Assembly (NCBI GenBank): GCA_964458915.1
Contig: CAYWKY010000001.1
Span: 1-38,492, forward strand
Length of the DNA stretch: 38,492 nt
Direction: 5' to 3'
DNA from: an uncultured Faecalibacterium sp.
GTDB taxonomy: Bacteria; Bacillota; Clostridia; Oscillospirales; Acutalibacteraceae
This document shows, one piece after another, positions 1 through 38,492 of this stretch. Each line of letters starts with the position of its first letter. The first letter of the stretch is position 1. The position numbers and the translations under genes are program-made. Below the pieces are notes generated by a model. That model saw only the letters and a program-made list of their open reading frames with translations, had not been told where the DNA came from and did no database searches.

Positions 1-2
1 AG

Positions 3-3000
3 TTCCTCCTTGACCTCTTTGGCGGTATCAGTGTTTACACTCTTCCCGTTTGGAGCATGTTCCTTGAGTCAATGTTTGCAGACATGGGTCTTGACCTTAC
101 AAATGGTTTCGACGGTATCCTCAATATGCTCATGCAGGCGACAAAGACGGATCAAGCGACTTATAACGCTGAACAGGCAAAACCCGAAGCAGATCGAGCT
201 GCGTTCCTAATGAAAGCGGTTCTTGACAATAAGGGTAATAAGGTTTATGACCTTTATAATAAAGACGGAACTGTTAAGCAGTATGGAGTTGACACAGCTG
301 CACTCGCTAAACAGTACCCCGATGGTTTACCTAACGGTGAATATACTGCTCTGAGAGAAGAACCTTATAGAGATAGTGACGGTAACTACTATTACAAGCT
401 TGGTCTTCTTACACAAACTCTCTTTAGCACCGGTGCAAAGGGCTGCAACGAAGGCTATCTTGAGGTTCTTACATTCAATAAAAAGGGTGTTGGTACAGTT
501 GACTTTAGCGTACCCGTTAACCGTATCGCAGCTATGGGTACTGTTACTGAAAAGACCATAAACGGTGTTAAGAGCACCTGGACAGGATACCATATTAATG
601 CTGACCCCGGTGACGTTATCCTTTCACTGTTTAGATGGCTTCTTAACGACGGTGTCCTCGCTAAGCTTACTCCGCTTCTTAACGGTATGCTCAGCGACGG
701 TTCATCAAGCGTAACAATTATTGATACAATCGTTCCCATTCTTGACGGTCAGGCTGACACACTTATGGCTGTTCTTATCTCACTTCTCAATAACTACACA
801 GTTAACGGCTTTGAGTATAAGGATACATTTAAAGACGGCAAAATGACATGGCGTGAGCTTGGCACAAAGGCAGGTCAGTTCGTTCTCGGTGAGTATCTCA
901 CAAGCTCACTTTCTGACGAAGAAACAGCCGGTGTTAATGATACCGACGAAAAGAGACTCGCTAAGGTTGACAGAGCTATTAAGAATATTGATGATCTTAT
1001 CAATGATCTTCTTCCCACACTTCTTCCTATAGTTCTTCCCATGGTTGAGGGTTCTATCCCCGCTGATCTTAAGGGTATTCTTGAACCTCTTAAGAATGTT
1101 GAAAAGGGCGACACTCTCGCTAACATAGTTGCTGATGTTATCACAACAGATGACCTTATGCAGTATCTTATTAAGATGCTCTTTGGTACTCATGAGCAAA
1201 AGACAGAAAAAGATAAAGACGGCAACGATGTTCCCGTTTGGAAGAAGAACGATGCCGGTAAATATGTTGACGAAAACGGCAACGAAGTAACTGAAGGCAC
1301 AGTACCTGTTCTTGACACAGGTCTGTTAGGCAATATCCTCAGCATGGATATTATTTCAAACCTTCTTCCTGCTCTTGCAGACTTCGACATCGACCTTCGT
1401 CCCAGCTCATTCTATAGTGCAGCTGAAACTCACTTTAACAATGGCGGCAGCGCAATTAAGGGTTGGCTTGATGCTTGTATGCAGGCAGCTAATGTTACAG
1501 AAATTAATAAGCTTGAATGGAAAGATGTTAAATACATCGCAGGTACAAAATGGTTCAACCTTAAAGATTCAACTGCTGAAATTAAAGTTGATGCATTCTT
1601 CGATGTAATCGAAACACTTCTCACTCCCCTTGATCCCCTGCTTTCATACATTCTCAGCGGTCAGAGCATCACACTCTTTGACGAGCTGACACTCCAGGGC
1701 GGTAAGGGCTATCAGACATCAGTTGTTATGCTTATCGAAGCTCTCGGCTACGGTAGTGTTAATATTGATGCTACTTACAAAACATCAATGAGTGAGCAAC
1801 AATACTACACCTATGTTTACGGTACAGCAGAACCCACAGCGCCTGCGGGTCACAGAACTTGGAAAACCGTAAACTCACCTCTCGCTCCGCTGTTCACAAC
1901 ACTTAGAGCTTTCCTCGTTGGTGACGGCGAAACACTCGGTGTCCTTGAGAGTCCTCTTACAGTTCTTCTCTCAAAGCTTCCCAACATTGCATATCTTATG
2001 TATATGTATGACACTGATGAGCTTGATCCGACAGGTGCAAATCACTACAAGCAGACTAATAACCTTGCTCAGGCTATTAAGAACCTTATCGCTCCCGTAC
2101 TCTCACTGCTCGACATCATCGACCCGATTCTTGCAAGAGCACTTGAGCTTGATATAGGCGGATTGCTTGACCAATACTTGAACATTGAAAATATTGTAAA
2201 TGAGCTTCTTACAGGTCTTATCAACGCTGACAAGACTGATGGCGACAAGACAGAAGTTGTTGTTTCTCACTTCGTTGACTTTGGCGCACTTGCAATTTAC
2301 GGCGCAACACCTTATAAGAACGCTCCCTCAAATGTTGTTGTTAATGGTACGGCTTATGGTACATTCACATATTTCCAAGGCTCACCTGCAAAGGCATTTA
2401 TCACACTTATGAGATCTATCGTTTCAGATGATCTTATTAACATGTTCGCTGACCTGTTCATGAGAGTCTACACAGCTGTTGAGGAGGGCGAGACAGTTAC
2501 TCCCGAAATGGCTGCTGACCGTGACAGAGTTCGTACTATAGTTAAGGCAATTGCCAGCCGTGCAAAAAATACTCTTACTGTAAACGGTGAATACAACGGT
2601 ACCAGCGTCGATATTATCACAGGTATCCTTGTTGACGTACTCACTGACTATGTACCCGGCCAAGGCGTAGATATGTTCTACAAGAAGATGGCTGATAGCT
2701 TAGATAAGAGCGACGCACTTCTTAAGGATACTATGGATAAGTACGGCATAGTACACCAGGGTTATAACTGGAATGATGTTTCTAAGGATGACAAGGATAA
2801 TGTTCTCTTCACAAAAGACGATGTTAACAATACTCTTGAAGGCATCGACAGTGTTCTCGAAAAGGCTATTCCCGACATCTTAAACATTCTCATTAAAAAT
2901 AATATGCTCGATCTCTCATCTCTTGGCATTGAGCTTGAGGCCGGAGACACAAGCACAGTTACACTTTATCAGCTTTTGACAAAGATTGTTGAAAAATATG

Positions 3001-6000
3001 CTTTCACTGATAGCATCATGACAACAATTGTTAACTTGCTTTGCGGCATATTCGGCGGCAGCGTCGGTGATTTCCTCCCGATCGTTGCAGATGCAGGTAT
3101 CGACATCACTGCTGTTACTCTTTATAAGAAAGCAGCAACAAATAGCGGTCTTCGTCAGTACATGGCTTACAATATTGCAGGCGGTGTTGACGAAAACGGT
3201 AAGATTACTGTTGACGGCAAAAAGCGTGACATCACTTGGGCTGACATTTATGATGCTCACAGCTATCAGAAGTACGTTTATGACGAAAACGGTAACATCA
3301 AGGAAGAAAACGGCAAGCCCGTTATGTCTTTCGACACTAAGGTTAAGTTAGACGAGAACGGCAAGCAGGTTACAGATGCAGATGGCAACCTTGTTCTCGT
3401 ACCCGACACAACTAAGCCGAAGAAGGCACTTATCACCGGCATTTATAATCAGGTTGCAAATGATAAGGGTGAGTTTAAGTACACCTATAAAGACGGCAAA
3501 GAAACAAAAGACTATTACAGCAAATATGAGCATCTTGAGTCATTCGCTGTAAAGGGCAAAGATGAAGACGGCAAGGAAGTTTACACTAAGTATACTCTTA
3601 AGCCGGTTTATGCAGAGCCAAGCGAAACTAACACAGCTAAGTGGACTTGGAACTTCGAGTCAGTGGCAAACGCTAACTTCTACGCTAAGGTTAGCTACTT
3701 CATCACTCAGCTTTGGGAAATCCTCGGCTGTCTTGAAGATATTCTTGAAGCTATCTTCTTTGGCGCAAGCTCAAATAAGGCAGTTAAGCTCTTTGACACA
3801 TTAAATATCGAAGGTCAGGATAGCTATGAAGAAGTTATGCTTCCCTTGCTTCGTGGCTTCGGTCTTGATGCAATCCTTTCACACCTTAACACAACTAAGG
3901 TTAAGGGTGATAACAGCAAGACATTACTCCAGCAGCTCAACGAAAAGCGTCATGAGCTTTATGGCGATGTAGCAGACATTCCCGATCGCCTCATTATGGA
4001 CAATGACGGTATGAAGGAAGCTTGCGATTACACTGCTGAAAACGGCTATGACATGAGCGCATTCCTTGAAACAAATATTAACTATATCTTGTTCTTCATC
4101 GAAATTCTTGCTTCATATCCTGTTACAACTCTTCTTACAGCTCTTCCGACACTCGCTTACTTTATCGCAGGCGACGGTCTTAACGAAATCCTTACAAACC
4201 TTCTTACATTCGTAACAGTGCTCACCGACAGACTTGGCCCAATCGTAAAGGTTGATGTTAACTCTCTCGGCGGTGGTCTTATCGACTACTTAGGCACAAA
4301 CGACTGGTCATCATTCCAGAAGGCATTCACAAAGCATATCACTGTAGACGACAAGGGTAACGTCACTGAAACAGAGATAGATGTATCCTTCACACAGGCT
4401 ATTATCTCCTTTGTTGCAAACATCAAGTTTGACCTTGCAGGACTTCTCAAGAAGGATGCACCGTACGTTCGTACTGTAACATACTTCATTAATCATGATG
4501 TTGAAGAGCAAGCTTGGGCAATGATTAATGCTAAGCCCGATGATGCTAAGGTACTCGAAGCAGCTCGTACTCTTCGTGCTAACGCAGTTACAGATTGGCT
4601 TAAGCAAATCGCAGCTCTCGCTGAACCCTTCGGTGAGCAGTACACCGATGCTGACGGTAACACTCATAATATTCCTGAAGCTTATCAGAACTATGTAAAG
4701 ATTGACGCTGCAAACGGTCAGCTCACAGTTAACAAGGCTGATGTCTTCATGTTCGTGATTGACTTCATCTTTGAAAACACAACAATTAAGGAAGTTCTTG
4801 GCGCACTTCTCGGTTATGACATCACAGATGAAAACGAAAGTGACGCAGCTCTCCTTGACGAACTTATAACAAACATCTTCAAAAACCCGGATTCACTCGT
4901 TAAGCTTATAGTTGCTCTGTTTAACGGCTATACAGTTCCAGGCGCAACAACAGTTGTTTTGGATAAAATTGACGAACATCACTATAACTTCTACGACGAT
5001 GACGGCAACACAACATATAAGGATGTTCTTGAGCAGATTCAAGCAGGCACCTACGCAGGTTCCGAAATCTCAAGAGCTAAGACATCCTACGCTATCGACA
5101 ACCTTGACAAGCTCGTTGGTACAGTTCTCAACCTCTTCAAGAAGGATCTTGTAAAAGAGGGTGGACTCTTCCACGGCATATTCGACGAAAACGACGACAT
5201 TAGCCTTAAGGCAGCTGTTAACGGTCTTCTTGAAGATATGCTCTTCACAGACGACATGATTAACGACCTTCTCGGTATGCTTGTAGGTCTTCTTGCCGGC
5301 GAAGGCACTGCTGACATTATCGGCATTGTAACTGATATTCTCAACAGCGCAACCGGTATTGACATTTCACCTAAGGCATTCGCTAACAACGACACTCTTA
5401 AGCAGATTATTCTTAAGGCTGACGGCAAAACAGCTAAGACTTGGTCTGAAATCGCTAAGGAAAACACTAAGTACGCCTTTACTTATGTAACCGGTAAAGA
5501 TGACCAGGGTAAGGACATTACCGCTACATGGTATGATGTACAGACTGCTTCTACAGTTACAATCGATGGTAAGTCTTATGATCTTGACCCTGTTTGGAAT
5601 CAGAAGCAGGCTCAGAATGCAGATAAGGAGTATGAATATTTCTACTATGCTACTGAGAACGATAAGAAAGACGACAATAAGACATCTTACTTCGACAAAG
5701 AGCAGAACAAGACTACAGTAACTATTGAGGGTACAGAATATACACTCACAGCAGTTATGGTTGACGACAAAACAAGCCAGAAGACAGCTGTTAAGTTTGA
5801 CAAAGAGTGGAATATTGTTGTCGAGGCAACAGATACCGATGAGAGCGGAAAGATTGATCAAGCTGAAATCGATGCAGCAACAGCTCAGTCACGCTTGAAC
5901 TTCGTTACTATTCTTTGGGATGTTCTTCAGCCTCTCGCTCCTGTTCTTGAGGTATTCCTCACAGGCGCAGAACTCACAATTTATGACGAAATCACATTCC

Positions 6001-18000: not shown

Positions 18001-21000
18001 ATAGCCTTTACGGCATGGTTGAATACATTCTCGGTGAGCTTGTATTCACAACAAAGAACTTTGAAACAATTATAAACGCAGTCATTAAGGCAATTGCAAA
18101 CTTCTTAACAGAAGACCTTGTTGGAATCCTTAAAGACCTTCTGGGCATCGACCTTGCACCTCAGGCCTTCGCTAAGGCAACAGGCAACACAGCTCTTATC
18201 AGCTATGTTGGTACAAGCAAGACATGGAAAGACGCTTGGCTTGCTCATAGCACAGAAACTACTGACGGCAAGGATCGTGTAGCAACAGCCTACAACTGGG
18301 GTGTAAATAATCAGGATACATTTGTTGATGCTATTCTTCAGTTTATTACTCCGTTGAATCCTGTTCTTGACTTCCTGCTTTGCGGTAAGGAATTAACTCT
18401 GCTTGACGAAATCAAGTTACCCGGCGGTTACGCTTATAACGGCGCTCTTGTTCCGCTGTTTAAGGCATTCGGTGTAGATCTTGCTTCGGCAACATCTTCC
18501 TCAGACGCTCTTGACAAGCTTGTAACCGGTCTTATCGGTACAAACGGTCTCGTTGGCAAGCTCACAACAGCTCCTCTTGAGACAATTCTTGAACTCGTTG
18601 CAGGTATCAGCTACCTGTTAGCAAACGACAACCTTGAGCCGATTATTAAGAATCTCCTCACTCCTGTCTTTGCAATTCTTGAATTACTTGAGCCTGTTAT
18701 CAGCAGAAAACAGCTTGACGATATTCTCACAGGTCTCATCGGTATGAGCCTTACAGAAATCATCGAAATTGGTAACAACGGCGGTGCAAACCTTGTTGCT
18801 CTTCTCAACAAGCTTATCGGCGGACTTAAGGTTAAGGACGATCAGGGCAATGTTGTTGACACAACTGACGTTCTTGCTCCCGACTTCTTCATTGAGCTTT
18901 CACGCTATGCTATCGTTGATGAAGTATACGAAGGTGACGTTAAGTACGACAAGCCTTCCGACGTTATCAGCAAAACTCCTGCAACTTCATGGAATGTTGA
19001 TGCAGCAGAAACACTTATGTACATCCTCGACAAGGTTCTTGACGATACATTCCTCAAGACACTTGCCGGCATAATCAAACCTGACGCAAGCGCAGACGAC
19101 ACTCTTACTTCGATTCTCGTTTCACTTGCAAACAAGGAAATTGAACTTGTAGATGTACTTCTTAAGCTCCTTGACAAATACACAATCACTTATACAAGAA
19201 TTCCGCAGTCCAATCTTGACAACAGTGTCAAGGCAGATTACAGCGCATTCGGTGAAAATGCAACTGATGTTAAGAATTCACTTCCCGGCGCTATGACAGC
19301 CCTCGATGCACTTCTTACAACAGTTCTCGGTCTTCTTGGTACCGATAGCGACCTTGGTGCTCTCGTTGACGGTCTTCTTAAGAACGCAGACCTTGGCAAT
19401 CTCATTATGAATGCTCTTGTTCCCGTTCTTGCAAAAACTGACCTTGATTCAATCATCAAGTATGTCAACGATCTTACTAACCTTAACCTCAATATTAACC
19501 CGCAGGCATTCGCTAACGATAAGTTTGGCTCTAAGCTTAAAAACTTTATCGGCGACGCTACGACATGGGCTGAGTTAGAGGCTAAGTACGCTATGTATGT
19601 TTACACTTACACCGATGGTGGCAAGGCTGTAAACTACTTATCGAATGATGCTAACCTTAATGGCACGACGATTACAATCGGTGAAGGCGATAAGGCTAAG
19701 GTAGTTACTCTCACAGCTGCTATGGTAGATGTAACAGCTGAAGATGGCACAACTTCATCAGTACAGAAGAAACAGATGAACGCTCAGTTTAACTGGAACC
19801 TCAACACTCTTGAAGATGTTGTGAACTTCGCTTGCGACCTTCTCCTTCCTCTCGATGTAGTATTTGAAGTACTTCTCAGCGGTAAGCAGATTATCGCTCT
19901 TGAAGACGGTGACTCTATAAGACGTGCAGATATTCGCATTAACGGTGGTTACGGCTATAACTACGCTCTCGTTCCTCTTCTTGAGGCTCTTGGCGCAACA
20001 CCTGTTGACCAGGCAACCTACGACAGAGAAATCGACAGCAAGTATCATGGCTCATCACTTAAGTATATCCTTGACACAATCGTTGGCAGAGTAGACGAAA
20101 TTCTCGCTGCTCCCATTAGCCAGGTATTCGGTCTCATCGCTAACTTGTTCTACTTCGTTGGTTCAGAAGGTATCAATACTTTCGTACTCAACCTTGTAGC
20201 TCCTGTAACAGAGCTTCTCGACGCAGTTTGCAAGGTATATCCGATCAGCATCCAGGTTGGTATTGTTGACGGCGCATTCAAGTTCGACACAGACTTTACA
20301 GGTACTAAGGGTCTTGAACCCGGCTTCAAGTTTGATCTTAAGGCTGATGACCTCAACGCACTTCTTGGCTCACTTCTCAGTGGCATCAAGGTAAATGACA
20401 AGCCTCTCGGTCTTACTCTTGACCTCGATTGGCTCAGCCTTGCCGCTCAGATGGCTAAGAGAGACGCAGACGGCAACATCATCTATAAAGATTCTGCTAT
20501 GGTTTACGGCTATGCAGACTCAACTATGAAGGGCGACGGCAACGATCCTTATAAGAACATCGAAGGCGATCCCGCTAACACATTGGTAGCTCTTCTCGGT
20601 GCAATTCTCACCGACAAGAACGTAGCTGTTATTAAAGAGCTTGTTCTCGGACTTCTCGGTGACACTAACCTTGACCCGACAATCGAAGGTCTTATCAATG
20701 ATGTTCTCAGCAATAAGAACGCACTCATTAACCTTATCGGTACTCTCGTAATCATTCTCACCGGCGAATATAATGTTACAACTCTTGAAATGGCATTCTT
20801 ATTCTTCGGCGTTAAGGATTACAATCTTGATAGAGCAGACGAAGCTATCGAAGCTCTCGATAGACTCATTGGTAAAGCAGTTCCCGTTATCCTCCCGCTT
20901 ATTGCCGGCGATAACGTAGAGGAAGGCTCACTTATGGATACTCTGCTTCAGGCTTCTAAGAATGTACCCGCAGGTACACCTGTTCTCAAGCACATCGTTG

Positions 21001-22196
21001 ACACACTTCTCAACGATATGGTATTCACAGATTCAATGATGAAGACTATCACCGATATGCTCATTAAGCTCCTCGGTGTAAACCTCAAAGCTGATCTTGT
21101 TGATACTCTCGGTGACCTTCTCGGCATCGACCTTACTCCGACAGCATTCGCTACTGCAAGCGGTAACGCTCAGCTTCAGGCTTATGTAAATGTTGGTACA
21201 GGCACAGGTACAGACGGCGCAATCACTTGGGCTGATGTACTCGCTGCTCACAGCACTAAGGACGAGAACGGCAACATCACTGCTATTGATCCTGTATTTA
21301 CCGGTGTTAACACTAAGGAAAGCTTCCTCGGTGCTGTCTATGACCTTCTTACTCCTCTTGAGAGTGTTCTCGCATTCTTGCTCACAGGCGGTGACCTTGA
21401 AATCGCTAAGGGCATGGGCGTTGACAACGTAAAACTTAAGGGTAACGCAGGTTATGACAACGCTATTAAGTATCTCTTCAAGGCTCTCGGTCTTGAGGAA
21501 ATGGGCGCAACATGGGTTGAGGCAACAGATGCAGTTGATGCACTCAGCAACACTGTTGATTACATCTTCACTCTTGTTGATACTCTTTGCAGCGCTCCCT
21601 TCGATACACTACTCGTTCTTCTTGGTAACTTGAGCTTCTTCATCGCAAATGGCGGTGTTGAGGTACTCATCAACAACCTTGTATCACCTGTTCTTTCACT
21701 TGTTGATGCACTTTCAGGCACAATTTCAAGAGAACAGCTTGACGCACTTCTTGCTTCACTTACAAAGAACGATATGCTCACCATCAGCGGTATCCTCGGT
21801 ATCGCAGGTGACCACGGCGAAGCTCTTGTAGAGCTTATCAACGGCTTACTTCCCGATCTCAAAGTTGAGGGTAAGGACGGTACCGTTCACGTAATCAAGG
21901 CTCTCAAGGAAGACTTCTTCATCGAACTTGCTAAGGCAGCAATTAAGGTTGACGTACCTAAGAACCCGGCTCTTAACGCCGAAGTTACTAAGTGGCACGT
22001 TGAAACAGGCGACACACTTATGTTCATCCTTGACACAGTTCTTACTAAGGACTTCCTTAACATTCTTTGCACTGCACTCGGTATCAACGCAAAGAATGAA
22101 CAGGGCGAGGAAAATCAGATTTATAACATCCTCATGTCACTCGTTGACAAGGAAGAGGAAATTCTTGACCTTCTCATTGACCTGCTTGCTAAGTGA
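3..22196 (+). CDS. Giant modular repeat protein, 5' part. The frame is open to the left window edge and ends at a TGA created by the 385-bp duplication junction.
   Basis: The frame is uninterrupted for more than 22 kb (7379 codons from ATG 57). There is no in-frame stop between nt 3 and 57. Residues encoded at about 57-1140 align with the C-terminal half of later modules, so the real start is upstream of the window. Codon bias is strong and uniform. Twelve copies of the conserved core G-G-x-G-Y-x-x-A-(I/L)-(I/V)-P-L-L-E-A-L-G occur in this part. No known family recognised. Confidence 0.9.
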   Translation, partial: FLLDLFGGISVYTLPVWSMFLESMFADMGLDLTNGFDGILNMLMQATKTDQATYNAEQAKPEADRAAFLMKAVLDNKGNKVYDLYNKDGTVKQYGVDTAALAKQYPDGLPNGEYTALREEPYRDSDGNYYYKLGLLTQTLFSTGAKGCNEGYLEVLTFNKKGVGTVDFSVPVNRIAAMGTVTEKTINGVKSTWTGYHINADPGDVILSLFRWLLNDGVLAKLTPLLNGMLSDGSSSVTIIDTIVPILDGQADTLMAVLISLLNNYTVNGFEYKDTFKDGKMTWRELGTKAGQFVLGEYLTSSLSDEETAGVNDTDEKRLAKVDRAIKNIDDLINDLLPTLLPIVLPMVEGSIPADLKGILEPLKNVEKGDTLANIVADVITTDDLMQYLIKMLFGTHEQKTEKDKDGNDVPVWKKNDAGKYVDENGNEVTEGTVPVLDTGLLGNILSMDIISNLLPALADFDIDLRPSSFYSAAETHFNNGGSAIKGWLDACMQAANVTEINKLEWKDVKYIAGTKWFNLKDSTAEIKVDAFFDVIETLLTPLDPLLSYILSGQSITLFDELTLQGGKGYQTSVVMLIEALGYGSVNIDATYKTSMSEQQYYTYVYGTAEPTAPAGHRTWKTVNSPLAPLFTTLRAFLVGDGETLGVLESPLTVLLSKLPNIAYLMYMYDTDELDPTGANHYKQTNNLAQAIKNLIAPVLSLLDIIDPILARALELDIGGLLDQYLNIENIVNELLTGLINADKTDGDKTEVVVSHFVDFGALAIYGATPYKNAPSNVVVNGTAYGTFTYFQGSPAKAFITLMRSIVSDDLINMFADLFMRVYTAVEEGETVTPEMAADRDRVRTIVKAIASRAKNTLTVNGEYNGTSVDIITGILVDVLTDYVPGQGVDMFYKKMADSLDKSDALLKDTMDKYGIVHQGYNWNDVSKDDKDNVLFTKDDVNNTLEGIDSVLEKAIPDILNILIKNNMLDLSSLGIELEAGDTSTVTLYQLLTKIVEKYAFTDSIMTTIVNLLCGIFGGSVGDFLPIVADAGIDITAVTLYKKAATNSGLRQYMAYNIAGGVDENGKITVDGKKRDITWADIYDAHSYQKYVYDENGNIKEENGKPVMSFDTKVKLDENGKQVTDADGNLVLVPDTTKPKKALITGIYNQVANDKGEFKYTYKDGKETKDYYSKYEHLESFAVKGKDEDGKEVYTKYTLKPVYAEPSETNTAKWTWNFESVANANFYAKVSYFITQLWEILGCLEDILEAIFFGASSNKAVKLFDTLNIEGQDSYEEVMLPLLRGFGLDAILSHLNTTKVKGDNSKTLLQQLNEKRHELYGDVADIPDRLIMDNDGMKEACDYTAENGYDMSAFLETNINYILFFIEILASYPVTTLLTALPTLAYFIAGDGLNEILTNLLTFVTVLTDRLGPIVKVDVNSLGGGLIDYLGTNDWSSFQKAFTKHITVDDKGNVTETEIDVSFTQAIISFVANIKFDLAGLLKKDAPYVRTVTYFINHDVEEQAWAMINAKPDDAKVLEAARTLRANAVTDWLKQIAALAEPFGEQYTDADGNTHNIPEAYQNYVKIDAANGQLTVNKADVFMFVIDFIFENTTIKEVLGALLGYDITDENESDAALLDELITNIFKNPDSLVKLIVALFNGYTVPGATTVVLDKIDEHHYNFYDDDGNTTYKDVLEQIQAGTYAGSEISRAKTSYAIDNLDKLVGTVLNLFKKDLVKEGGLFHGIFDENDDISLKAAVNGLLEDMLFTDDMINDLLGMLVGLLAGEGTADIIGIVTDILNSATGIDISPKAFANNDTLKQIILKADGKTAKTWSEIAKENTKYAFTYVTGKDDQGKDITATWYDVQTASTVTIDGKSYDLDPVWNQKQAQNADKEYEYFYYATENDKKDDNKTSYFDKEQNKTTVTIEGTEYTLTAVMVDDKTSQKTAVKFDKEWNIVVEATDTDESGKIDQAEIDAATAQSRLNFVTILWDVLQPLAPVLEVFLTGAELTIYDEITFRGFKGYSGVILPIIEALGVPVLTKTDGTKYLDNSKYYKTQEAYEAAVNAKGSDKQVLLQSITDALFALVDSLCDRPVSTIATILPYLSRFIESDGLDTIVANLLSPVTALTDMIKDIYDLDLIGLLKGVLQGLAGSSDDQAVETAAEYATQQLTMVQATNTSTGIQLKDNSQTRAADTQSGVDTSKLTFMDIIWKILENVKIKVNDTTTIALSNIISQNLFHVLASCAWFDGDNTGALHIKDVEYDENNINDSKVINVALEGENYAQYYVDRETVLLAVLDTLVFQTGVRDLIAGFLGDYDFSAAGLAGLEADPNKTLDTDYLIPALLYGVFTDGEALERLLIDLLSWYDVEYAPARVSTSIEGITNDLPAANWETSGIDKNELEKLPEQLDNLIAAVLPLVIELLPTFGVKLNLETGGATSIEGIVENLIASLFKDTEKADGLATTLFELLVNLFGGSKLDGTLSLIYELTGGDESAINLTLDYFKASSEAVATYFADCKTWEDAYKKYNNKVAFTGQKVTYTDADNVEHKDAPVANDGTFLYVTDEYNNPVAEYALDKDNNKIPVYANGNFITDDYGNKWYTTAGTATEGEQPLKDTYVVKTAEGKVVYQYKYAVQLTITNSFGATDYDKTMALLGDIITPFVPVFRLLLVESGDLVLLDGITISAGDGYDRFIIPVAEMLGITVENDKNAVAAFDNAEFGDWFVGCIVKLIHKIVSAPVQTIVDLIPSLSYFIVSNGLAQSVEQFLAPLLTLVDMVNDITAKEHTITGREEPLVALNIYELLVDLLDGIVTLPEGTDTAGEVITALLTADGLENLIMGLAKDAEGNTKLGFIDGIFAEIVTKTCATAEVKTMRYFGATQRGGSRYIQGIKTSRAVTVINLISEMVLAEDGLIFDILNLLNVNLDDDKNATIKTVIDGITGDKRYCVLQVLLNYFNHYDVENDLIEYLSFDKQDYDYSNYTTGTTLTARKVRRAIKKLDQAILALIPEILPMLENVDILKDALASLKKPDGTYTGVTLNQVIEAILTDLAFNDDTMNSLVGLVVGLLGGEGISDTLDSIAPVLAKIEIDLTPATIADNAPDTAVASFINAAIAATTSETVTRADVSWSDIAKYYSDNRYYYIDTVVDTKDTDDTSDDVTTYVIKEYFDNDKYENASTQTITVNGNGVEKVLYNLVIETDTDGKIVWDGAEGGTPKFKKDDKGATISAGTKVLGATTYTWGISEADSFEAKKDKFISELWAILKAVEPVLNFLLRGDNITLKSTVKDENGNDKEVDAITIKGGQGYRYALYPLLQALAADQMNNTLVDASAYESGKGNYITISAIFDGIFNIVENLENGPFEYILTLLPSLSYFLSSDGLRIFVENLLSPVFALLDVAEPAVGALLDDLLGGLLSPLVDDYMPSFGEEVENKRPTNDNKTPEDPSDDYKEYTLDEIMQIAGADGSNLVKIINKVVGGLLVKTPEGETAQVIEILPANFFKDYVAHAVEISRDEGAKQYYELQVNGTNKIIYMAQADYNEETMASLYTIKATRYAVSSWNVDIADSLVYLLQSVVSEDLLKVFAKDYGTDKWNDKLSKNDLITVILNNLINGKNNGLTITDILVSLFEGYEISYSPLNGIYIEGVGKHDGYSNTSDLAGKLDNVINEALPVLLPMLIKNPAEGSLADTLLKAMKDYDSSAEGAGTSIEALLDALVNSFLTDDMVRGVLEMLIGVLGNSTIDMVLGLVKIGENKLTADEYLAEIKNHFTREGLTEDQKAAYAAALNALTTIIGGSDSWTDVAKKYTRYEYTYIITPASGDNKAVTGTYYDADSKLNGTKKTIGGKEYTLAAAYEVVDGKSVHKTAIKLDENLTFGIKDATDKLDALIKAFTVILEPLTAVLQLVLQGKTVTLLSSNGQYVGDFDADITGATDNDDRAEEIEAGVIVGDGYIELRGSKGYDEGLLALAEAIFGQIKGTALAAQIPDGATFNAYTNIEDILGAVVNMIMALVDGLAQGPIEFLSNHLAGLLYFVASDNLANLVDNVLALANGLFKVLSPLTGTDDLLSMLGLDLSILKLDKLLDMLNKLIQNPKDYEVTVANGKATYVNDKKETVEIKDTSKIFDKEITDKNNNKKTIKAITVNTGLDFTITKDMLTGLVAAMGEYTTFDSLRTSATSALLDKDGNAVDTNGNPLTGDAILSKKITTVVGCDHSLYGLLNFVLTDEILGQFISVDETDTDNILNDVIKALTADDAAKGIVDLLGTLTTEYLVEYAVIFAEEGENAFKKIPVLYAGDENGHTVTRDTTLNAITNLDNLINPIFEITGLGSLQDLVGGLVFTDDMVNMIVGLIAGLFSGLNSDTMSLIDTIAGILGEEIDISVETYKNNETLADFFGEATTWAEVAEKYTKYVYTYTSVDKDGKEVVNTVYLADANATEYKVSDNETYTLTKVYEQKTDSTGTLVYNVNGTETALNDVKKDTDGTYYIEKDGANVIVTPVYTDKRATKVVYDYAWGMDKLTDTVENNVVTYSKMYKQIDKFVAILTGLLKPVDFILEVLLAGGTDDGDATNCDSIGAFGEINIMGGSGYNYAIIPLLETLGVPNEMIKTQTEYEATFANQGALGYILETLLKYIADGLNQPMSFVINLVTNLVYSMANGDGLTKLIGNLIAPVSELLRAVEGVLPVAIEINLLNIFAEDTTKNPIINFYLGDSVASHGAQVGLKIDLSLATFEQLITAAVGKFANGLDLEFDLKTFVQSAVATNADGSIKYVASMTSTAYDKVNPEGKEWRDRIVVDKADALVAFLDMIVTKEFVDTLLKDVLKVELDENGYIPALANLSEDLAKLVRDAMDDPSTVVDVVIKLLAADYTVNDVKVLFDALTGASYNYETEGVTKNKVELALNKLDAVINNAIKPVFNILGGMNNMPEIVTELAEAVKNDDNASIGSVVDYALETMLFTDDMINTLFSLIVNLLAGIDAKTFKTINDITTEVLKLDITPEGFAKAMDAALEGTEQGAVSAYIMSFKNGDKALTWSDIALSKNYYVYECTIPAADNGGKEKKFEVTYLTQGVTSHEIDGKAYPIVPVYEKDGVTQKTKAVLDYNWGIAEAENKQEKFINTLLEILAPFSPILDWLFRGESITLIYEGFSLDGGNAYDNVLVPLAKALGEDIRTNKQIGTDKNVIYCVGELLNGILSIVDRLADAPVQTIIDVVVGLSYFIASDGIAETVKGLLAPIFGLLTTVESIADMNDIDDLLENLLHIKLPGGKMLTVTNIINIAGEHGEGLVAMLNELLGTVTIEDELGNVATFNLLPEDFFLQIANYGIVNATQTPLTEGQMGYDYQPRQISVTDWDIDTADALMYILSTVCSDSFLKVLCNLLKADANSSVGQIVVGLAGKQDNIVDIIITLLTDYKVTYSDYNRGDINKTPVTHIKPMDEESLQAALSALDSIIPAVVGIFGLDADSLQSLLGELLQGLDIGNMLMDMLVPLLASMDLDEIIGYVNDLTNLNLDISTYAFCHDTFDSKLDSFIASAVDTDKNGKISWKELEAKYTQYVYEYTVDGKKETYYSYDDNLETATIGEGTAAKTVNLTKVMEDVTVNETTTKVHKKEMHSTFDWEFDYTTNFDGLVDFVCDLLYPLDSVLGLLLTGEQVIILEDKNAEEREDIRINGGRGYNFAIIPLLEAFGIEAISEEDYIELAKTEGHLHYILDAIVSKVTNDLLKHPVQTLLGMLANLFYFIGTNGINYVAENLLAFANILLEKVAPVYKIGISIDLSELNKTNGAVLKTTFDSKYADSLPAGININCRASDLTALIADLISGIQIDLDGDGIKDDLGLELNLDWNALAAKMAKVDENGDIIKHQTAQVTTEGTRATWYNIEGDVEDTFTTLIDTILTEDNAYAISKLLENLLKNVELPDGSDGGIDVVSIINDIIYDPNGIKELLAAVVLLLSGTYSTEALPTVYNVFKALSYFVGETAGDKDKLNKAISRLDTIIVREVPELLPMFIDSTSATGILKTLLDAANASDSLYGMVEYILGELVFTTKNFETIINAVIKAIANFLTEDLVGILKDLLGIDLAPQAFAKATGNTALISYVGTSKTWKDAWLAHSTETTDGKDRVATAYNWGVNNQDTFVDAILQFITPLNPVLDFLLCGKELTLLDEIKLPGGYAYNGALVPLFKAFGVDLASATSSSDALDKLVTGLIGTNGLVGKLTTAPLETILELVAGISYLLANDNLEPIIKNLLTPVFAILELLEPVISRKQLDDILTGLIGMSLTEIIEIGNNGGANLVALLNKLIGGLKVKDDQGNVVDTTDVLAPDFFIELSRYAIVDEVYEGDVKYDKPSDVISKTPATSWNVDAAETLMYILDKVLDDTFLKTLAGIIKPDASADDTLTSILVSLANKEIELVDVLLKLLDKYTITYTRIPQSNLDNSVKADYSAFGENATDVKNSLPGAMTALDALLTTVLGLLGTDSDLGALVDGLLKNADLGNLIMNALVPVLAKTDLDSIIKYVNDLTNLNLNINPQAFANDKFGSKLKNFIGDATTWAELEAKYAMYVYTYTDGGKAVNYLSNDANLNGTTITIGEGDKAKVVTLTAAMVDVTAEDGTTSSVQKKQMNAQFNWNLNTLEDVVNFACDLLLPLDVVFEVLLSGKQIIALEDGDSIRRADIRINGGYGYNYALVPLLEALGATPVDQATYDREIDSKYHGSSLKYILDTIVGRVDEILAAPISQVFGLIANLFYFVGSEGINTFVLNLVAPVTELLDAVCKVYPISIQVGIVDGAFKFDTDFTGTKGLEPGFKFDLKADDLNALLGSLLSGIKVNDKPLGLTLDLDWLSLAAQMAKRDADGNIIYKDSAMVYGYADSTMKGDGNDPYKNIEGDPANTLVALLGAILTDKNVAVIKELVLGLLGDTNLDPTIEGLINDVLSNKNALINLIGTLVIILTGEYNVTTLEMAFLFFGVKDYNLDRADEAIEALDRLIGKAVPVILPLIAGDNVEEGSLMDTLLQASKNVPAGTPVLKHIVDTLLNDMVFTDSMMKTITDMLIKLLGVNLKADLVDTLGDLLGIDLTPTAFATASGNAQLQAYVNVGTGTGTDGAITWADVLAAHSTKDENGNITAIDPVFTGVNTKESFLGAVYDLLTPLESVLAFLLTGGDLEIAKGMGVDNVKLKGNAGYDNAIKYLFKALGLEEMGATWVEATDAVDALSNTVDYIFTLVDTLCSAPFDTLLVLLGNLSFFIANGGVEVLINNLVSPVLSLVDALSGTISREQLDALLASLTKNDMLTISGILGIAGDHGEALVELINGLLPDLKVEGKDGTVHVIKALKEDFFIELAKAAIKVDVPKNPALNAEVTKWHVETGDTLMFILDTVLTKDFLNILCTALGINAKNEQGEENQIYNILMSLVDKEEEILDLLIDLLAK

Positions 22197-24750
22197 CCAC
22201 GGCGAAGCTCTTGTAGAGCTTATCAACGGCTTACTTCCCGATCTCAAAGTTGAGGGTAAGGACGGTACCGTTCACGTAATCAAGGCTCTCAAGGAAGACT
22301 TCTTCATCGAACTTGCTAAGGCAGCAATTAAGGTTGACGTACCTAAGAACCCGGCTCTTAACGCCGAAGTTACTAAGTGGCACGTTGAAACAGGCGACAC
22401 ACTTATGTTCATCCTTGACACAGTTCTTACTAAGGACTTCCTTAACATTCTTTGCACTGCACTCGGTATCAACGCAAAGAATGAACAGGGCGAGGAAAAT
22501 CAGATTTATAACATCCTCATGTCACTCGTTGACAAGGAAGAGGAAATTCTTGACCTTCTCATTGACCTGCTTGCTAAGTACTTAGTTGAATATAAGGCTT
22601 ATAAGCAGCAGCCCATTGACAAGACTCAGATGACCTCAGAGAGTACAAACGAACAGTTTAACAGCATTGTTTCTAACCTTGACGCTCTTATCCCGACAAT
22701 CCTTAGCCTTGTTGGTCTTAAGGATTCAGAGGGCAAGGACGTAACAAGCCTTGAAGATCTTATCAATGGCTTCCTTAACGACTCAATTGCTGATATGCTC
22801 GTTGGCATGATCGCAGAGCTTCTCTCCGGTCTTAAAGCTGAGGATATAGATCCTATTCTCGGTTATGTACGCTCACTCACAAATCTCACCGACCTTGACA
22901 TAGCTCCCAAGGCATTCGCAAATGACTTCTTTGGCTCAAAGGTTAAGCAGTTCTTTGCTGATACAGCTGCGGCAGCAAATACAACAATCGACAAGCTCAC
23001 ATGGGCTCAGGTTTGGACACTTAACAGCCATGAGGTTACTGACGCTGAAGGCAAGGTAACTCGTGAATTTAACGGTTACAACTGGGGCGTTAAGAGTCTT
23101 CGCGACCTTATCAACCTTGTTTGCGACTTCATCAAGCCTCTTGATTGCGTACTCGCAGTACTCATTCAGGGTGGTCAGGTAGAATCAGAGTTTATCGCTA
23201 GCGGTAAAACATCAGTTGGTAAGCCAATCAGCGCTCTTGACGAAATCAACATCATGGGCGGTATGGGTTACAACTATGCAATCTTACCTCTTCTTGAACT
23301 CCTCGGCGTTGACGCTATGAGTCAGGATACATTCGATGCAACAGTACTCGAAAATAACGGTAGCGTTCTTTATCCGATACTTGATATGCTCGACACAGCT
23401 ATCTACGGCTCAATTGATTCAAATGGCAACAGACAGGACGACGGCATACTTAAGAACCCGATCAACTGGCTCACAAGTATCCTCGCTAACCTTTGCTACG
23501 TTCTCGGTAACGACGATATTACAACTATCGTTGACAACCTCATCGCTCCTGTTAACCAGCTTATCGCTAAGGTTGACAAGATAATCCCCATCGCTATTGA
23601 AATTAACCTCGGTTATATCAATACCGATAAGAAAGTTGTCCAGATGTACCTCGGTACTGAGCATCCGGGCATTGAATCCGGTATCCACATTATCGTTAAG
23701 GGCGACGACATCGCAGCATTGCTCGAAAATCTCCTTGCAACACTTGAGATTGAGGGTAAGGCTCTCGGCATTAAGGTTGACCTTGATTGGCTCGCACTTG
23801 TCGGTAAGGCAGGTAAGGACGCTAACGGTGACGGTAAGGTTGACTTCAGCAAGACAAGACTCGACGATAAGTTCGACATCTTCAACGGCACAACCTACAG
23901 CACAATCGTTGGCGACCCGGCTGACACCTTCGTAACACTTCTTGATGTTGTTATAGGTGAAAAGGGTGAAGACGGCAAGACTAACATCGATAGAATCCTC
24001 GAAGCTCTCGGCGTTGAACTCAGCCCCGAAATCAAGGATATTATCGACCAGGTAGTTGAAGATCCTTCAAAGATCATCGACCTTATCGCAGGTCTTCTCG
24101 GCGAAACAACCTATCAGCCTGTACAGAACAGACCTATCGCTGTTACCGGCGAAGATTATAGAGGCTATCTGACCTTCACAGAGCAAAACGCTGACATAAT
24201 CGCTAACAACCTTGACGCACTTATAGTTGACATTCTCAACGCAGCAGGCGTTGGTTCACTCAGAGGTCTTCTTGCACCGTATATTTCAAACAAGACTGTT
24301 AACCAGCTTCTTGATATGATTATCGGTCTGCTTGCAGGCGACTCAGTAGGACCTATCCTTGAAACAGTTGCAAGCCTCAACCTTGGCATTGAGATTCCGC
24401 TTACTCTTAAGTCATTCTCAGCTAAGATCAGCGAGCTTGCTAAGACAAGAAGCTACCTTAAGGGCATCGCTGCTCACCTTGAAAAGGCTGTTAAAGCCGG
24501 TGGCGACAACGCTAACTGGTCAAATGTAACTTCACTTCAGGAAGCTAACATTAATTGGGAAGTTACCGACGGTAACACCAACCAGTTCACACGTGCACTT
24601 GCAGGCTTCTTAACACCGCTTAACGATCTGTTTGAGCTTCTGCTTATCGGCGAAAGCACAGGCATTAAGCTTGACCTGTTAGGTATCGCTCAAATCGGTG
24701 GCGGTAACGGATATGATTACGCAATCATCCCGCTTCTCGAAGCTCTCGGC
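1698..24750 (+). repeat. Protein-level array of 14 diverged modules within the giant gene (not a DNA-identical repeat)
   Basis: Conserved cores (GGxGY..PLLEALG type) lie at 1698-1748, 3810-3863, 6000-6053, 7998-8051, 9843-9896, 11796-11852, 13674-13727, 15372-15425, 16929-16982, 18420-18473, 19941-19994, 21438-21491, 23254-23307 and 24697-24750. Each is followed about 40-60 aa later by a (L/I)-P-x-L-x-Y-F-x-x-S-(D/N)-G-L-x-x-x-V-x-N-L-L-x-P-V motif. Each is preceded by an F-T-D-D-M-(I/V)-N-x-L-x-x-L-(I/V)-G-L-L-x-G type helix. Confidence 0.85.
21808..22579 (+). repeat. Exact head-to-tail tandem duplication, unit 385 bp (2 copies plus 2 nt), inside the giant gene
   Basis: nt 21808-22194 appear identical by eye to nt 22193-22579 (offset 385). 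The identical shadow ORFs 21887..22087 and 22272..22472 confirm the offset. 385 is 3x128+1, so the reading frame shifts. The junction reads aag|tga, placing TGA at 22194-22196. There is a 2-nt GT microhomology at the junction. Confidence 0.95.
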
Positions 24751-25776
24751 TTCCCCGCAGAACAAGTTCTCACTCACAGACAGTTTATGACCGCTGTTGA
24801 GAAAGACGAGACTCAGCTTCTCGGCTACCTCCTTAACAAGGTTGCAGAGCTTGTTAATAAGATCCTTGACAGACCTATTGATACAATTCTCGGACTCCTT
24901 CCGAATCTTGCATACTTCTTCTCAAATGAAGGCTTACTGCTTACAGTTAAGAACCTCATTGCTCCGATCTACACAGTACTCATCACAGTAACAAATGTTC
25001 TTGGTGTTAATATTGAAAGCTATCTCAAGCTTGAAGAACTTCTTCACAGCATTGACCTTGGCATCGTAGTTGGTGAGAGCAAGTATGACTTCAGAATTCC
25101 TGTAATCGATTGGCATAAGCTTGCTACTAAGGGTGGCGACAAGGCTCAGGAGGTTAACACCTCACGTTCCTATGAAGCTAACTCCTATGTACAGGAAATG
25201 AAGGCTGATGAATATGCAGCTTACACTAAGGCTAATCCGGATGCAGCTCACAAGACAACTCAGAAGCATATCGTAGCCGATAAGGGCGATACACTTACTG
25301 TTATACTTGCATGGGTATTCGATATGTTCGGTGACGCACACAACAGAGAGGCACTTGTTCAGTGGATCGTAGACTTCTTCGATCTTAAGAGTGGTGCTGA
25401 AGAAACTGTAAGATATGCAATTAACCAGCTCTTCAACCAGGCTGAGATGAACAACTCAACTGATATTCTTGTATCAGCTCTTATGATTGCTCTCGGCGTA
25501 GGCGTTGGTGTTGACAAGGCTATTATGGGCGACATCAAGTCAATCGTTGAAATCTATCGCCAGCTCTTCGGAGCAATCGGTGACGGTTCAGGTTCAATCT
25601 ACGGTTCAATCGCATCCGCAATGGAAGAACTTACCGGCGTTTGGTACGATACAATCGGTACACCTGAAGAAGGCGATGACGTTAAGGACGAAGTTGAAGA
25701 AAACCTCAACTGGTTCCAGAGACTCTTTAAGAAGATTAAGGAATTCTTCCAGAAGATTTTCGGTATCTTTGGTTAA
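22195..25776 (+). CDS. 3' remainder of the same giant gene, shifted +1 by the duplication. It carries the last two modules plus a unique C-terminal tail. If the duplication is real, this piece is effectively a pseudogene fragment.
   Basis: From nt 22195 the translation reads DHGEALVELING..., identical to copy 1, then continues YLVEYKAYKQQ... to TAA at 25774-25776. The tracked ORF start at 21928 (MLRQQLRL...) is an out-of-frame reading of copy 1, not a real N-terminus. Deleting one 385-bp copy joins 57..25776 into 25335 nt, which is 8444 codons plus stop. Confidence 0.85.
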   Translation, partial: DHGEALVELINGLLPDLKVEGKDGTVHVIKALKEDFFIELAKAAIKVDVPKNPALNAEVTKWHVETGDTLMFILDTVLTKDFLNILCTALGINAKNEQGEENQIYNILMSLVDKEEEILDLLIDLLAKYLVEYKAYKQQPIDKTQMTSESTNEQFNSIVSNLDALIPTILSLVGLKDSEGKDVTSLEDLINGFLNDSIADMLVGMIAELLSGLKAEDIDPILGYVRSLTNLTDLDIAPKAFANDFFGSKVKQFFADTAAAANTTIDKLTWAQVWTLNSHEVTDAEGKVTREFNGYNWGVKSLRDLINLVCDFIKPLDCVLAVLIQGGQVESEFIASGKTSVGKPISALDEINIMGGMGYNYAILPLLELLGVDAMSQDTFDATVLENNGSVLYPILDMLDTAIYGSIDSNGNRQDDGILKNPINWLTSILANLCYVLGNDDITTIVDNLIAPVNQLIAKVDKIIPIAIEINLGYINTDKKVVQMYLGTEHPGIESGIHIIVKGDDIAALLENLLATLEIEGKALGIKVDLDWLALVGKAGKDANGDGKVDFSKTRLDDKFDIFNGTTYSTIVGDPADTFVTLLDVVIGEKGEDGKTNIDRILEALGVELSPEIKDIIDQVVEDPSKIIDLIAGLLGETTYQPVQNRPIAVTGEDYRGYLTFTEQNADIIANNLDALIVDILNAAGVGSLRGLLAPYISNKTVNQLLDMIIGLLAGDSVGPILETVASLNLGIEIPLTLKSFSAKISELAKTRSYLKGIAAHLEKAVKAGGDNANWSNVTSLQEANINWEVTDGNTNQFTRALAGFLTPLNDLFELLLIGESTGIKLDLLGIAQIGGGNGYDYAIIPLLEALGFPAEQVLTHRQFMTAVEKDETQLLGYLLNKVAELVNKILDRPIDTILGLLPNLAYFFSNEGLLLTVKNLIAPIYTVLITVTNVLGVNIESYLKLEELLHSIDLGIVVGESKYDFRIPVIDWHKLATKGGDKAQEVNTSRSYEANSYVQEMKADEYAAYTKANPDAAHKTTQKHIVADKGDTLTVILAWVFDMFGDAHNREALVQWIVDFFDLKSGAEETVRYAINQLFNQAEMNNSTDILVSALMIALGVGVGVDKAIMGDIKSIVEIYRQLFGAIGDGSGSIYGSIASAMEELTGVWYDTIGTPEEGDDVKDEVEENLNWFQRLFKKIKEFFQKIFGIFG

Positions 25777-25942: not shown

Positions 25943-26488
25943 TCAACCTAATTTATATACATATACTAAAAACGAAATCACAAAAAATATAGTGGAATAT
26001 ATCATAACAATAAGAGCTAAGTTTTTAATTGTTTTAAGCTCTATAGTTGAATTTGCTAATTCCTCCGGTGAAGCATTTTCATGATATTCGTTTCTGGCTT
26101 CAAGTATATCTTTAACTGAGCATGATATAACGATTATATCCAGAATAAAAATTATCATTAAGACAAACAATGAGAGAGCGAAGCCAACAAACTCATCGTT
26201 ATACAAGTTATCAATTGTATGAAGTATTTTTATTACAGGTAATGCCGCAGTTAAAGCAGTAAAAAAGGGTACCTTAAAAAAGATTTTTAGAAAGCTTTCG
26301 TTTATGATATATTTATATTTTGCAACGGGGCTTAGCGTTGACAAGTCAATAGTCGGCGCAGTGGTCTTCGGCATTTTCTCTCTCTTTGGCTTATCGTTAA
26401 ATGCCCATATAGCTATGCCGCTGTATATTAACAGCTCTATTAAATCAAAGAGTATGCCTATATCCTTGCTTGAGCTTTTCTTTGCCAT
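25943..26488 (-). CDS. Small integral membrane protein (about 4 predicted TM helices), function unknown
   Basis: 181-aa ORF with four hydrophobic stretches (IGILFDLIELLIYSGIAIWAF, FFKVPFFTALTAALPVIKIL, FVGFALSLFVLMIIFILDIIVISCSV, LALIVMIYSTIFFVISFLVYVY). AAGGAG lies 7 nt upstream of the ATG (26495-26500 on the - strand). The gene is AT-rich. No family recognised. Confidence 0.65.
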   Translation of the reverse strand: MAKKSSSKDIGILFDLIELLIYSGIAIWAFNDKPKREKMPKTTAPTIDLSTLSPVAKYKYIINESFLKIFFKVPFFTALTAALPVIKILHTIDNLYNDEFVGFALSLFVLMIIFILDIIVISCSVKDILEARNEYHENASPEELANSTIELKTIKNLALIVMIYSTIFFVISFLVYVYKLG

Positions 26489-31987: not shown

Positions 31988-32003
31988 GAGAAAGGAGATT
32001 ATT

Positions 32004-34101: not shown

Positions 34102-34115
34102 GGAGGATTTTTATT

Positions 34116-34457: not shown

Positions 34458-34478
34458 TAAAACGGGAGGTAAAATAAC

Positions 34479-35480: not shown

Positions 35481-35492
35481 GGGTGATAAGCT

Positions 35493-36186: not shown

Positions 36187-36187
36187 G

Positions 36188-38012: not shown

Positions 38013-38032
38013 AAAATCTAAAGGATTATTAT

Positions 38033-38422: not shown

Positions 38423-38492
38423 GAGTGAGGCTGTGCTGTGTAGGATGATTTCATTCTCACGCTTTGAATGTGCAATTAGTAATGTGCAATTA

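Follow-up and report, generated by a model that had tools for sequence, protein, structure and literature searches.

We analyzed a 38,492-nucleotide stretch of DNA from an uncultured Faecalibacterium sp. (contig CAYWKY010000001.1; "the window" denotes this whole stretch), two thirds of which are taken up by a giant gene on the + strand. We found that the window holds most of one real gene of ~9,660 codons (~1.05 MDa) from an uncultured, Acutalibacteraceae-like gut member of the Oscillospirales, and that the protein is built from long modules that belong to no described family and match no solved structure. Judged by its sequence matches, the gene is a member of a sizeable, wholly unannotated superfamily of gut Oscillospirales and not a singleton. 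The function that we infer for its product is probably that of a Sec-exported giant surface fibre tethered at its C-terminus, with a layout resembling that of Ebh but assembled from new parts. A more far-reaching and tentative proposal, which may well fail, is that the ~500-residue module represents a new fold and that, in addition, the acidic linker, SLNWFQ motif and Lys/Phe helix at the C-terminus form a new sortase-independent anchoring tag for surface proteins of Acutalibacteraceae and related gut Clostridia.

The giant gene and its reading frame

Two open reading frames (ORFs) of the giant gene lie on the + strand, at 57..22196 (7,379 amino acids, aa) and at 21928..25776, and frame 3 is stop-free from base 3 of the window. 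At ~0.055 stops per random codon, the chance of encountering 7,397 stop-free codons is ~1e-183. The sole break in the giant frame is a perfect tandem duplication of 385 bp, in which positions 21808-22192 recur as 22193-22577 at 100% identity. Because 385 equals 3 x 128 + 1, the frame shifts and a stop arises at 22194-22196. At the junction of the two copies, microhomology is limited to 2 nucleotides (nt; GT). With one copy deleted, the frame can be read from ATG 57 as far as the stop at 25774-25776 and encodes a protein of 8,444 aa (919.6 kDa, pI 4.3). This protein contains 12.2% Leu, 9.0% Asp, 8.5% Ala and 8.2% Thr, with Arg (1.3%), His (0.7%) and Cys (0.33%) at the low end. The gene-level features of the locus are as follows.

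1..22196, + strand: 5' part of the giant gene (frame 3, open from the window edge); earliest ATG in the window at 57, stop at 22194-22196, one codon into copy 2
21808..22192, + strand: 385-bp duplication, copy 1
22193..22577, + strand: 385-bp duplication, copy 2; identical to copy 1, frame +1, not in contig L082
22195..25776, + strand: remaining codons of the giant gene, in a separate frame; aa 7252-8444 and stop codon
25818..25853, + strand: strong intrinsic-terminator-like hairpin of 11 bp (7 GC) followed by T7, 42 nt past the stop codon

An independent assembly of the locus was located by exact look-up of the Mfd protein encoded in the window. This 48,065-bp Logan contig (SRR19576302_2036, from SRR19576302), referred to as L082, matches the window at 99.8-99.9% identity across 20 kb. 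Its positions 14278-14664 align to both window copies, meaning that L082 contains one 385-bp unit, and the giant gene is called there as one 9,660-aa product. It follows that 1,216 residues precede the first methionine in the window. In agreement with this number, window residue 2 aligns to residue 1229 of the closest N-terminal relative, P0023. An exact-match scan of JGI metagenome contigs, aimed at the upstream sequence of the window strain, gave no match.

Comparison with relatives further supports the gene model. The orthologue P0034 (7,429 aa) is colinear with the window protein, with 57.5% identity over 7,598 alignment columns and ~7,300 residues. Across the reconstituted junction (aa 7150-7550), 60+ species-level genomes are colinear with the window protein, and no orthologue carries an insertion there. 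Two relatives, P0036 (7,632 aa) and P0038 (5,829 aa), are single ORFs with both a signal peptide and the C-terminal tail. The intact gene in L082, the colinear orthologues and these complete relatives together indicate that the gene is real and not a chimera of paralogues. An earlier note on this DNA had described one + strand frame from the window edge to 25776, broken only by the 385-bp duplication and encoding 8444 aa (~0.9 MDa) from ATG 57, in a protein rich in Asp, Glu, Thr, Leu, Asn, Lys and Gly and poor in Arg, His and Cys. The open frame, the exact repeat, the recomputed length and mass and the computed composition all bear out this description. Its proposal that the gene extends upstream is confirmed by the 9,660-aa gene with a single 385-bp copy in L082, and its concern that shorter paralogues might have been mis-assembled is not borne out by L082, by the colinearity with P0034 or by the 60+ genomes at the junction.

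Other orthologues are split into two adjoining ORFs: of 3,189 and 5,466 aa in L001 (177-26401), of 6,112 and 4,291 aa in L002 (1-22876), and of 3,636 and 6,322 aa in L080 (5933-26843). The splits fall at differing sites, and breaks are thus common in these genes whatever lies behind them, be it frequent assembly errors or common truncation alleles. The present case illustrates how metagenome assemblies routinely break up giant genes.

A module family in unannotated gut proteins

Self-BLAST, alignment and a hidden Markov model (HMM) resolve 14 complete, diverged modules of 470-752 aa in the window-encoded protein, with pairwise identities of 20-49%. From module 8 onward, two module types alternate and form a super-repeat of ~1,010 aa. 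The landmarks of the module are LDxLI, an invariant Trp in 'TWAEV', GGxGY...PLLEALG and NLxYF..DGL..NLLAPV. Among the positions that are nearly invariant (D, W, P, G, G, Y, L, Y and N), none points to catalysis. In the following lines, each module is given with its residues in the reconstituted protein, the first residue being that at which the module starts.

1..953, + strand: C-terminal part of an earlier module, aa 1-299; module HMM match at 146-284
954..2810, + strand: module 1, aa 300-918
2811..5066, + strand: module 2, aa 919-1670; long Tyr/Thr/Lys-rich insert
5067..7133, + strand: module 3, aa 1671-2359
7134..8903, + strand: module 4, aa 2360-2949
8904..10883, + strand: module 5, aa 2950-3609
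10884..12836, + strand: module 6, aa 3610-4260
12837..14603, + strand: module 7, aa 4261-4849
14604..16229, + strand: module 8, B-type of the two-module super-repeat, aa 4850-5391
16230..17858, + strand: module 9, A-type, aa 5392-5934
16527..16562, + strand: canonical EF-hand-type loop DTDKNGKISWKE, aa 5491-5502
17859..19268, + strand: module 10, B-type, without beta insert, aa 5935-6404
19269..20822, + strand: module 11, A-type, modelled with AlphaFold2, aa 6405-6922
19590..19778, + strand: Tyr/Thr-rich insert of module 11, predicted seven-stranded beta sheet, aa 6512-6574
20823..22644, + strand: module 12, B-type, holds the duplication, aa 6923-7401 after removal of one copy
22645..24177, + strand: module 13, A-type, aa 7402-7912
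24178..25773, + strand: module 14, terminal variant, aa 7913-8444

We modelled module 11 with AlphaFold2 from a 31-row module alignment, 14 rows of which come from the window protein itself, and obtained a mean predicted local distance difference test score (pLDDT) of 80.8 and a predicted template modelling score (pTM) of 0.76. From N to C, the model opens with a helical part; the Tyr/Thr-rich insert then makes up a seven-stranded sheet, and a long helix and the GGxGY hairpin lead to a helical bundle, a second small sheet and a C-terminal helical part. The Tyr/Thr-rich beta insert is present in some modules and missing from others. In the comparison with P0034, insert residues are 48% identical with 8.6% gaps, whereas core residues are 62% identical with 1.8% gaps; the beta inserts evolve faster than the module core.

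We compared the protein to known families, motifs and folds. Nothing scored above the Pfam and NCBIfam cut-offs in ten overlapping chunks of the window protein, in full-length relatives or in C-terminal ends, and the only recurring sub-threshold Pfam signal is an EF-hand loop. In the PDB, sequence profiles of the module, of the C-terminal domain and of the N-terminal alignment gave no match. Foldseek, run with the module 11 model, reached a best E of 0.9 and a TM score of at most 0.12 in the PDB and a best E of 0.28 in BFVD. A regular-expression scan of the window protein found no Walker A, HExxH, RTX nonapeptide or LPXTG motif, and the module has no match in a plasmid collection or in 50,697 phage records. 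The fold comparison thus covered the PDB and BFVD, and the case that the module has no described relative, strong at the level of HMMER and Foldseek, is not exhaustive. A confident module model combined with the missing fold match suggests a new fold. The earlier note had arrived by eye at long, diverged modules that mix helices with Tyr/Thr-rich strands, at an unrecognised family, and at a protein with no Walker A, HExxH, tandem RTX repeats or C-terminal LPXTG and no SLH, cohesin or Ig repeats. The 14 modules and the AlphaFold2 model agree with the first point, and the family, profile, structure and motif searches agree with the others.

Several familiar classes of giant or surface proteins were considered and rejected. 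An RTX adhesin would carry tandem GGxGxDxUx nonapeptides and a C-terminal signal for type I secretion; no RTX nonapeptide is present, and Pfam gave no match. A cellulosomal scaffoldin or S-layer protein is disfavored by the lack of cohesin, dockerin, SLH and CWB2 matches in Pfam and NCBIfam, with EF-hand-like loops occurring in isolation only. For large toxins (Tc TcA, large clostridial toxins), neither the module nor the N-terminal region of a relative has a Foldseek match in the PDB at E <=0.001, and no HExxH or other catalytic motif was found. A sortase substrate was rejected because no LPXTG-like motif is present at the C-terminus and LPXTG_anchor and the other NCBIfam CTERM sorting models gave no match.

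EF-hand- or dockerin-like calcium loops occur as isolated elements in a few modules: DTDKNGKISWKE at 16527-16562, DANGDGKVDF at ~23818-23847 and DTDESGKIDQAE at ~5832-5867. The first of these, in module 9, occupies the position of the degenerate 'TWAEV' motif in other modules and gives a sub-threshold match to Pfam EF-hand_5. This hints that part of the module may derive from a helix-loop-helix calcium-binding unit.

The assignment to a superfamily is based on three sets of searches. Word-indexed searches returned 33 proteins, all of them unnamed or 'hypothetical' and free of Pfam domains, from metagenome-assembled genomes (MAGs) labelled Ruminococcus, Oscillospiraceae, Acutalibacteraceae or Clostridia. 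The module profile, run against 1.84 billion representatives, matched 669 clusters (defined at 50% identity) at E<=1e-3, 392 of them at E<=1e-30; these are unnamed, and nearly all are 2,000-7,700 aa long or fragments. Relatives carry 3-17 matches to the module HMM, and a Sec signal peptide opens most full-length members. Finally, the C-terminal alignment, run against a set with one genome for each species, identified 77 loci, more than 60 of which encode the full C-terminal domain. Most lie in Acutalibacteraceae MAGs sampled from the guts of ruminants, deer, humans (Hadza among them) and other hosts. The best C-terminal match is 74-75% identical, indicating that the species of the window is not among the scanned representatives.

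Upstream of the giant gene in one relative lie genes of ordinary metabolism. In the locus L081 of a relative, a 2,441-aa product with weak Flg_new matches (1-3594) runs off the locus; it lies ~6.4 kb upstream of the giant gene, with five genes between. Large surface-protein genes may cluster in these genomes.

Termini, proposed anchoring and a possible surface fibre

We next consider how the protein may be exported and held. Relatives that align to the first window residues start with MKVGKKVLSCVLAIMMIVSSVSVCFSVLGA, a typical Sec signal. This is followed by a conserved region of ~650 aa, for which AlphaFold predicts mostly long helices and few short strands (pLDDT 81, pTM 0.54). Foldseek found nothing at E<=0.001 in the PDB for this N-terminal region of a relative, and only a generic helical-rod likeness (Exo70, Munc13 MUN domain) at E>=0.02. 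From these N-termini we infer that the window protein, too, is exported by Sec.

Conservation is highest over the final 300 residues, which average 55% column identity across ten relatives and close with a linker and a tail:

24874..25638, + strand: C-terminal domain, where conservation peaks (mean column identity 55% across ten relatives); TSR and DKGD motifs invariant
25639..25704, + strand: linker VWYDTIGTPEEGDDVKDEVEEN, second half acidic
25705..25773, + strand: C-terminal tail LNWFQRLFKKIKEFFQKIFGIFG, predicted Lys/Phe amphipathic helix

If LNWFQRLFKKIKEFFQKIFGIFG is drawn as a helix, its 18-residue hydrophobic moment is 0.79, which places it in the top 0.01% of the 18-mers of the protein. 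No segment of transmembrane grade was found in the window-encoded part, where the highest 19-residue Kyte-Doolittle mean is 1.88 and all such segments contain charged residues. Four types of C-terminal ends occur in the superfamily. The first is the Lys/Phe amphipathic tail, in the form '...APNGFIKFFQKIADFFKKI...' or in the SLNWFQ form of the window protein. The second is a classical transmembrane helix followed by KKKK, in some cases preceded by a Thr/Pro/Asn/Gly-rich linker; among the paralogues listed, twelve end in a transmembrane helix and a Lys/Arg cluster. A third type, '...LVELLQSLAG', is found in one subfamily, and a fourth is the hydrophobic '...FMPIIRWVLRLFG'.

The window protein carries the acidic linker and, at its extreme C-terminus, the tail SLNWFQ-(K/R)-x-I-K-x-I-K-x-FF-x-K-(I/L)-F. 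The C-terminal alignment also matched 11 of the loci examined (within the range L066-L078) over the last 25-35 residues only. The proteins encoded there end in '...VPDVEESLNWFQKIIKAIKDFFAKLFGKK', the tail ESLNWFQKIIKAIKDFFAKLFG being specified by the last ~90 nt of ORFs that end near locus position 10,080. Ten of the 11 have a signal peptide and a length of 1,450-1,970 aa, whereas L069 yielded only a 411-aa frame with no recognisable signal; none of the 11 loci has a giant-module match. All five tail-only proteins scanned with Pfam carry Flg_new (Listeria-Bacteroides repeats) at E 1e-23 to 8e-30, some together with MucBP or fn3-like domains, and several of the tail-only loci share MAGs with giant-gene loci. 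The presence of the tail on otherwise unrelated exported proteins, and of a transmembrane-plus-basic anchor at the same place in paralogues, means that this short shared C-terminal element is best explained as a putative anchoring or sorting tag.

These findings are consistent with the following scheme. The protein would be exported by an N-terminus that, as in its relatives, comprises a Sec signal peptide and a helical region of ~650 aa. The C-terminal domain, the acidic linker and the Lys/Phe amphipathic helix would then keep this end of the chain at the outer surface of the cytoplasmic membrane, a placement suggested by the paralogues with transmembrane helices, by the portability of the tail and by the precedent of PBP5. 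On ordinary adhesin-type proteins of the same genomes (Flg_new, MucBP), the tail would take the place of LPXTG. The chain of modules may cross the wall and reach out past it as a putative long fibre of acidic character. Here, the fast-evolving, Tyr/Thr-rich beta inserts would be the likely contact surfaces, and the fibre might act as an adhesin, a spacer or a surface coat.

We compared this putative fibre to described giant and surface proteins. Ebh and Embp consist of dozens of tandem, largely helical repeat units of ~126 aa that are thought to form a long rod. They resemble the window protein in being ~1-MDa Firmicute proteins with an N-terminal export signal (for the window protein, taken from relatives), tandem repeats and, as proposed for the window protein, a C-terminus at the membrane. 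Ebh, of ~1.1 MDa, is anchored in the membrane by its C-terminus and often truncated in strains, and its function is poorly defined, with steric shielding, envelope integrity and matrix binding under discussion (PMC4856396). The window protein differs in its unit, which is 470-750 aa long and of mixed alpha/beta type where that of Ebh is helical, in its tail, which is a predicted amphipathic helix and not a transmembrane segment, and in its origin from Oscillospirales and a different module family. As FIVAR, GA and DUF1542 repeats gave no Pfam match at E<=1 in the ten overlapping chunks, the window protein lies outside the Ebh/Embp family. Adhesins of the LPXTG/sortase type are, like the proposed fibre, Sec-exported, acidic, Cys-poor and repetitive Firmicute surface proteins, and the tail of the giant protein is common to MucBP/Flg_new proteins in genomes with giant genes; however, the window protein lacks LPXTG or a related motif, a transmembrane-plus-basic tail, and Ig, MucBP and Flg_new domains.

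[quoted passage not shown] The terminal helix of PBP5 and PBP6 has ~18 residues, and the window tail is of comparable length with a very high hydrophobic moment. There is no sequence relationship, the window organism is a monoderm and the cargo measures 1 MDa; membrane binding of the window tail is suggested by analogy. Giant proteins of related bacteria have been reported as RCC1-type giants of Oscillospiraceae in a metagenome survey (bioRxiv 10.1101/2023.11.21.568195) and as S-layer/MBG-domain giants of 'Hodor' megaplasmids (bioRxiv 10.64898/2026.02.21.707213). They share with the window protein a length of several thousand residues, a signal peptide (for the window protein, that of its relatives) and a repetitive architecture, and are predicted surface proteins of gut Clostridia, but they are built of Pfam domains (RCC1, Listeria-Bacteroides repeat, YG/MBG, S-layer), none of which occurs in the window protein, and unlike the Hodor genes the window gene is not on a plasmid. 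The literature on giant proteins of Oscillospiraceae and Acutalibacteraceae yielded only these RCC1-type and S-layer/MBG-type giants, which are different families.

Several observations weigh against a tethered fibre of undescribed modules. As the sequence stands in the window, the giant gene is frame-shifted; its N-terminus lies outside the window, and the signal peptide is that of relatives no more than 55% identical. For a transmembrane helix the tail is too polar, and it matches no known sorting-domain model in NCBIfam; it could instead attach to anionic polymers of the wall, promote oligomerisation or act as a sorting signal that is cleaved off. The alignment behind the module model is shallow, and a remote relationship could have been missed by HMMER and Foldseek. 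No conserved downstream neighbour that might hint at a pathway occurs in 60 loci, the best cluster, a generic ATP-binding cassette (ABC) ATPase, being found in 19 of the 60.

The frame shift raises the question of whether the window allele is a fresh pseudogene or truncation allele. Either the duplication arose in assembly, as an artefact, or it is a very recent mutation specific to the strain; its identical copies and 2-nt junction homology fit both an uncollapsed contig overlap and a very recent event. Were it real, translation would stop at 22196, and a product of 7,379 aa plus the upstream part would be released without an anchor, lacking the last 1,065 residues and the tail. The duplication is present in the sequence as given, giant genes of the family are split at various places in L001, L002 and L080, and natural truncations of ebh are documented among Staphylococcus aureus strains (PMC4856396). 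Yet the copies resemble an overlap equally well, L082, nearly identical to the window, has a single copy and an intact frame, and no orthologue is inserted at the junction. We regard a truncation allele as rather unlikely; it would concern the window allele only and is compatible with a tethered fibre at the level of the family. A chimera of shorter paralogues, or a non-coding accident, is effectively refuted. Internal repeats make assembly error-prone, and the duplication is one anomaly of an assembly type, but the modules are at 20-49% protein identity too diverged for mis-joined reads, the independent assembly, 99.8% identical, arranges them in the same order, colinearity with orthologues extends past 7,000 residues, and an open frame of this length is not expected by chance (~1e-183).

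A further alternative, which we consider unlikely, is that the protein is exported but not anchored, and acts as a released matrix or biofilm scaffold or as a toxin-like effector, with the tail serving oligomerisation, wall-polymer binding or recognition and cleavage by a processing enzyme. In its favor, the window-encoded part has no transmembrane segment, the tail is not a known sorting signal and one subfamily ends differently, in '...LVELLQSLAG'. On the other hand, paralogues with the same modules end in classical transmembrane-plus-KKKK anchors, the tail occurs on proteins with MucBP and Flg_new domains, which are typical of wall-attached adhesins, and neither the sequence nor the fold searches turned up a toxin, enzyme or pore-forming domain. 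It is highly improbable that the giant gene belongs to a neighbouring phage-like element and encodes a giant tail fibre or an injected protein. A head/packaging cluster does lie 4.4 kb downstream (30169-36580), but mfd and a terminator intervene, the module is missing from the phage records and from BFVD, and the orthologues in 60 loci have unrelated, non-phage neighbours.

The tethered fibre, if correct, has several implications. Megadalton proteins are rare and costly, and here a superfamily of them with no name, Pfam model or structural relative is found in an order common in human and ruminant guts. On the more far-reaching proposal of a new fold and a new tag, common uncultured gut anaerobes would carry a surface coat of megadalton fibres that has so far escaped notice and is attached by a new mechanism, and the same tag would serve these fibres, paralogues of 2,000-7,000 aa and ordinary MucBP/Flg_new adhesins. 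The sharing of the tail with MucBP/Flg_new proteins suggests a surface attachment outside current sorting-signal models; annotation pipelines would in this case label such surface proteins 'hypothetical' and overlook their localisation. The profiles of the module and the tail built in this work would allow the superfamily to be annotated, and the tail is a short peptide, whose binding to membrane or wall is directly testable.

Other genes in the window

Directly downstream of the giant gene and convergent with it lies a 181-aa ORF (25943-26488, - strand) with several hydrophobic segments. It has no Pfam or PHROG match and is also gene-called in the near-identical Logan contig. The phage-like head/packaging cluster (30169-36580, + strand) is located between mfd (26583-30059, - strand) and obg (36741-38012, + strand). 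It encodes a small and a large terminase, a portal protein (phrog_30703, E 3e-129), phrog_16951, a virion structural protein, a major head protein (phrog_3922, E 2e-98) and three small ORFs, with no tail, lysis, integrase or replication genes among them. It could be a head-only satellite, an element resembling a gene transfer agent (GTA) or a prophage remnant, and its head protein is ~60% identical to proteins of uncultured human-faecal phage contigs. The right end of the window (36741-38492) carries the housekeeping genes obg and mini-ribonuclease III, which together with mfd identify the window as chromosomal DNA of a Firmicute (~43-44% GC).

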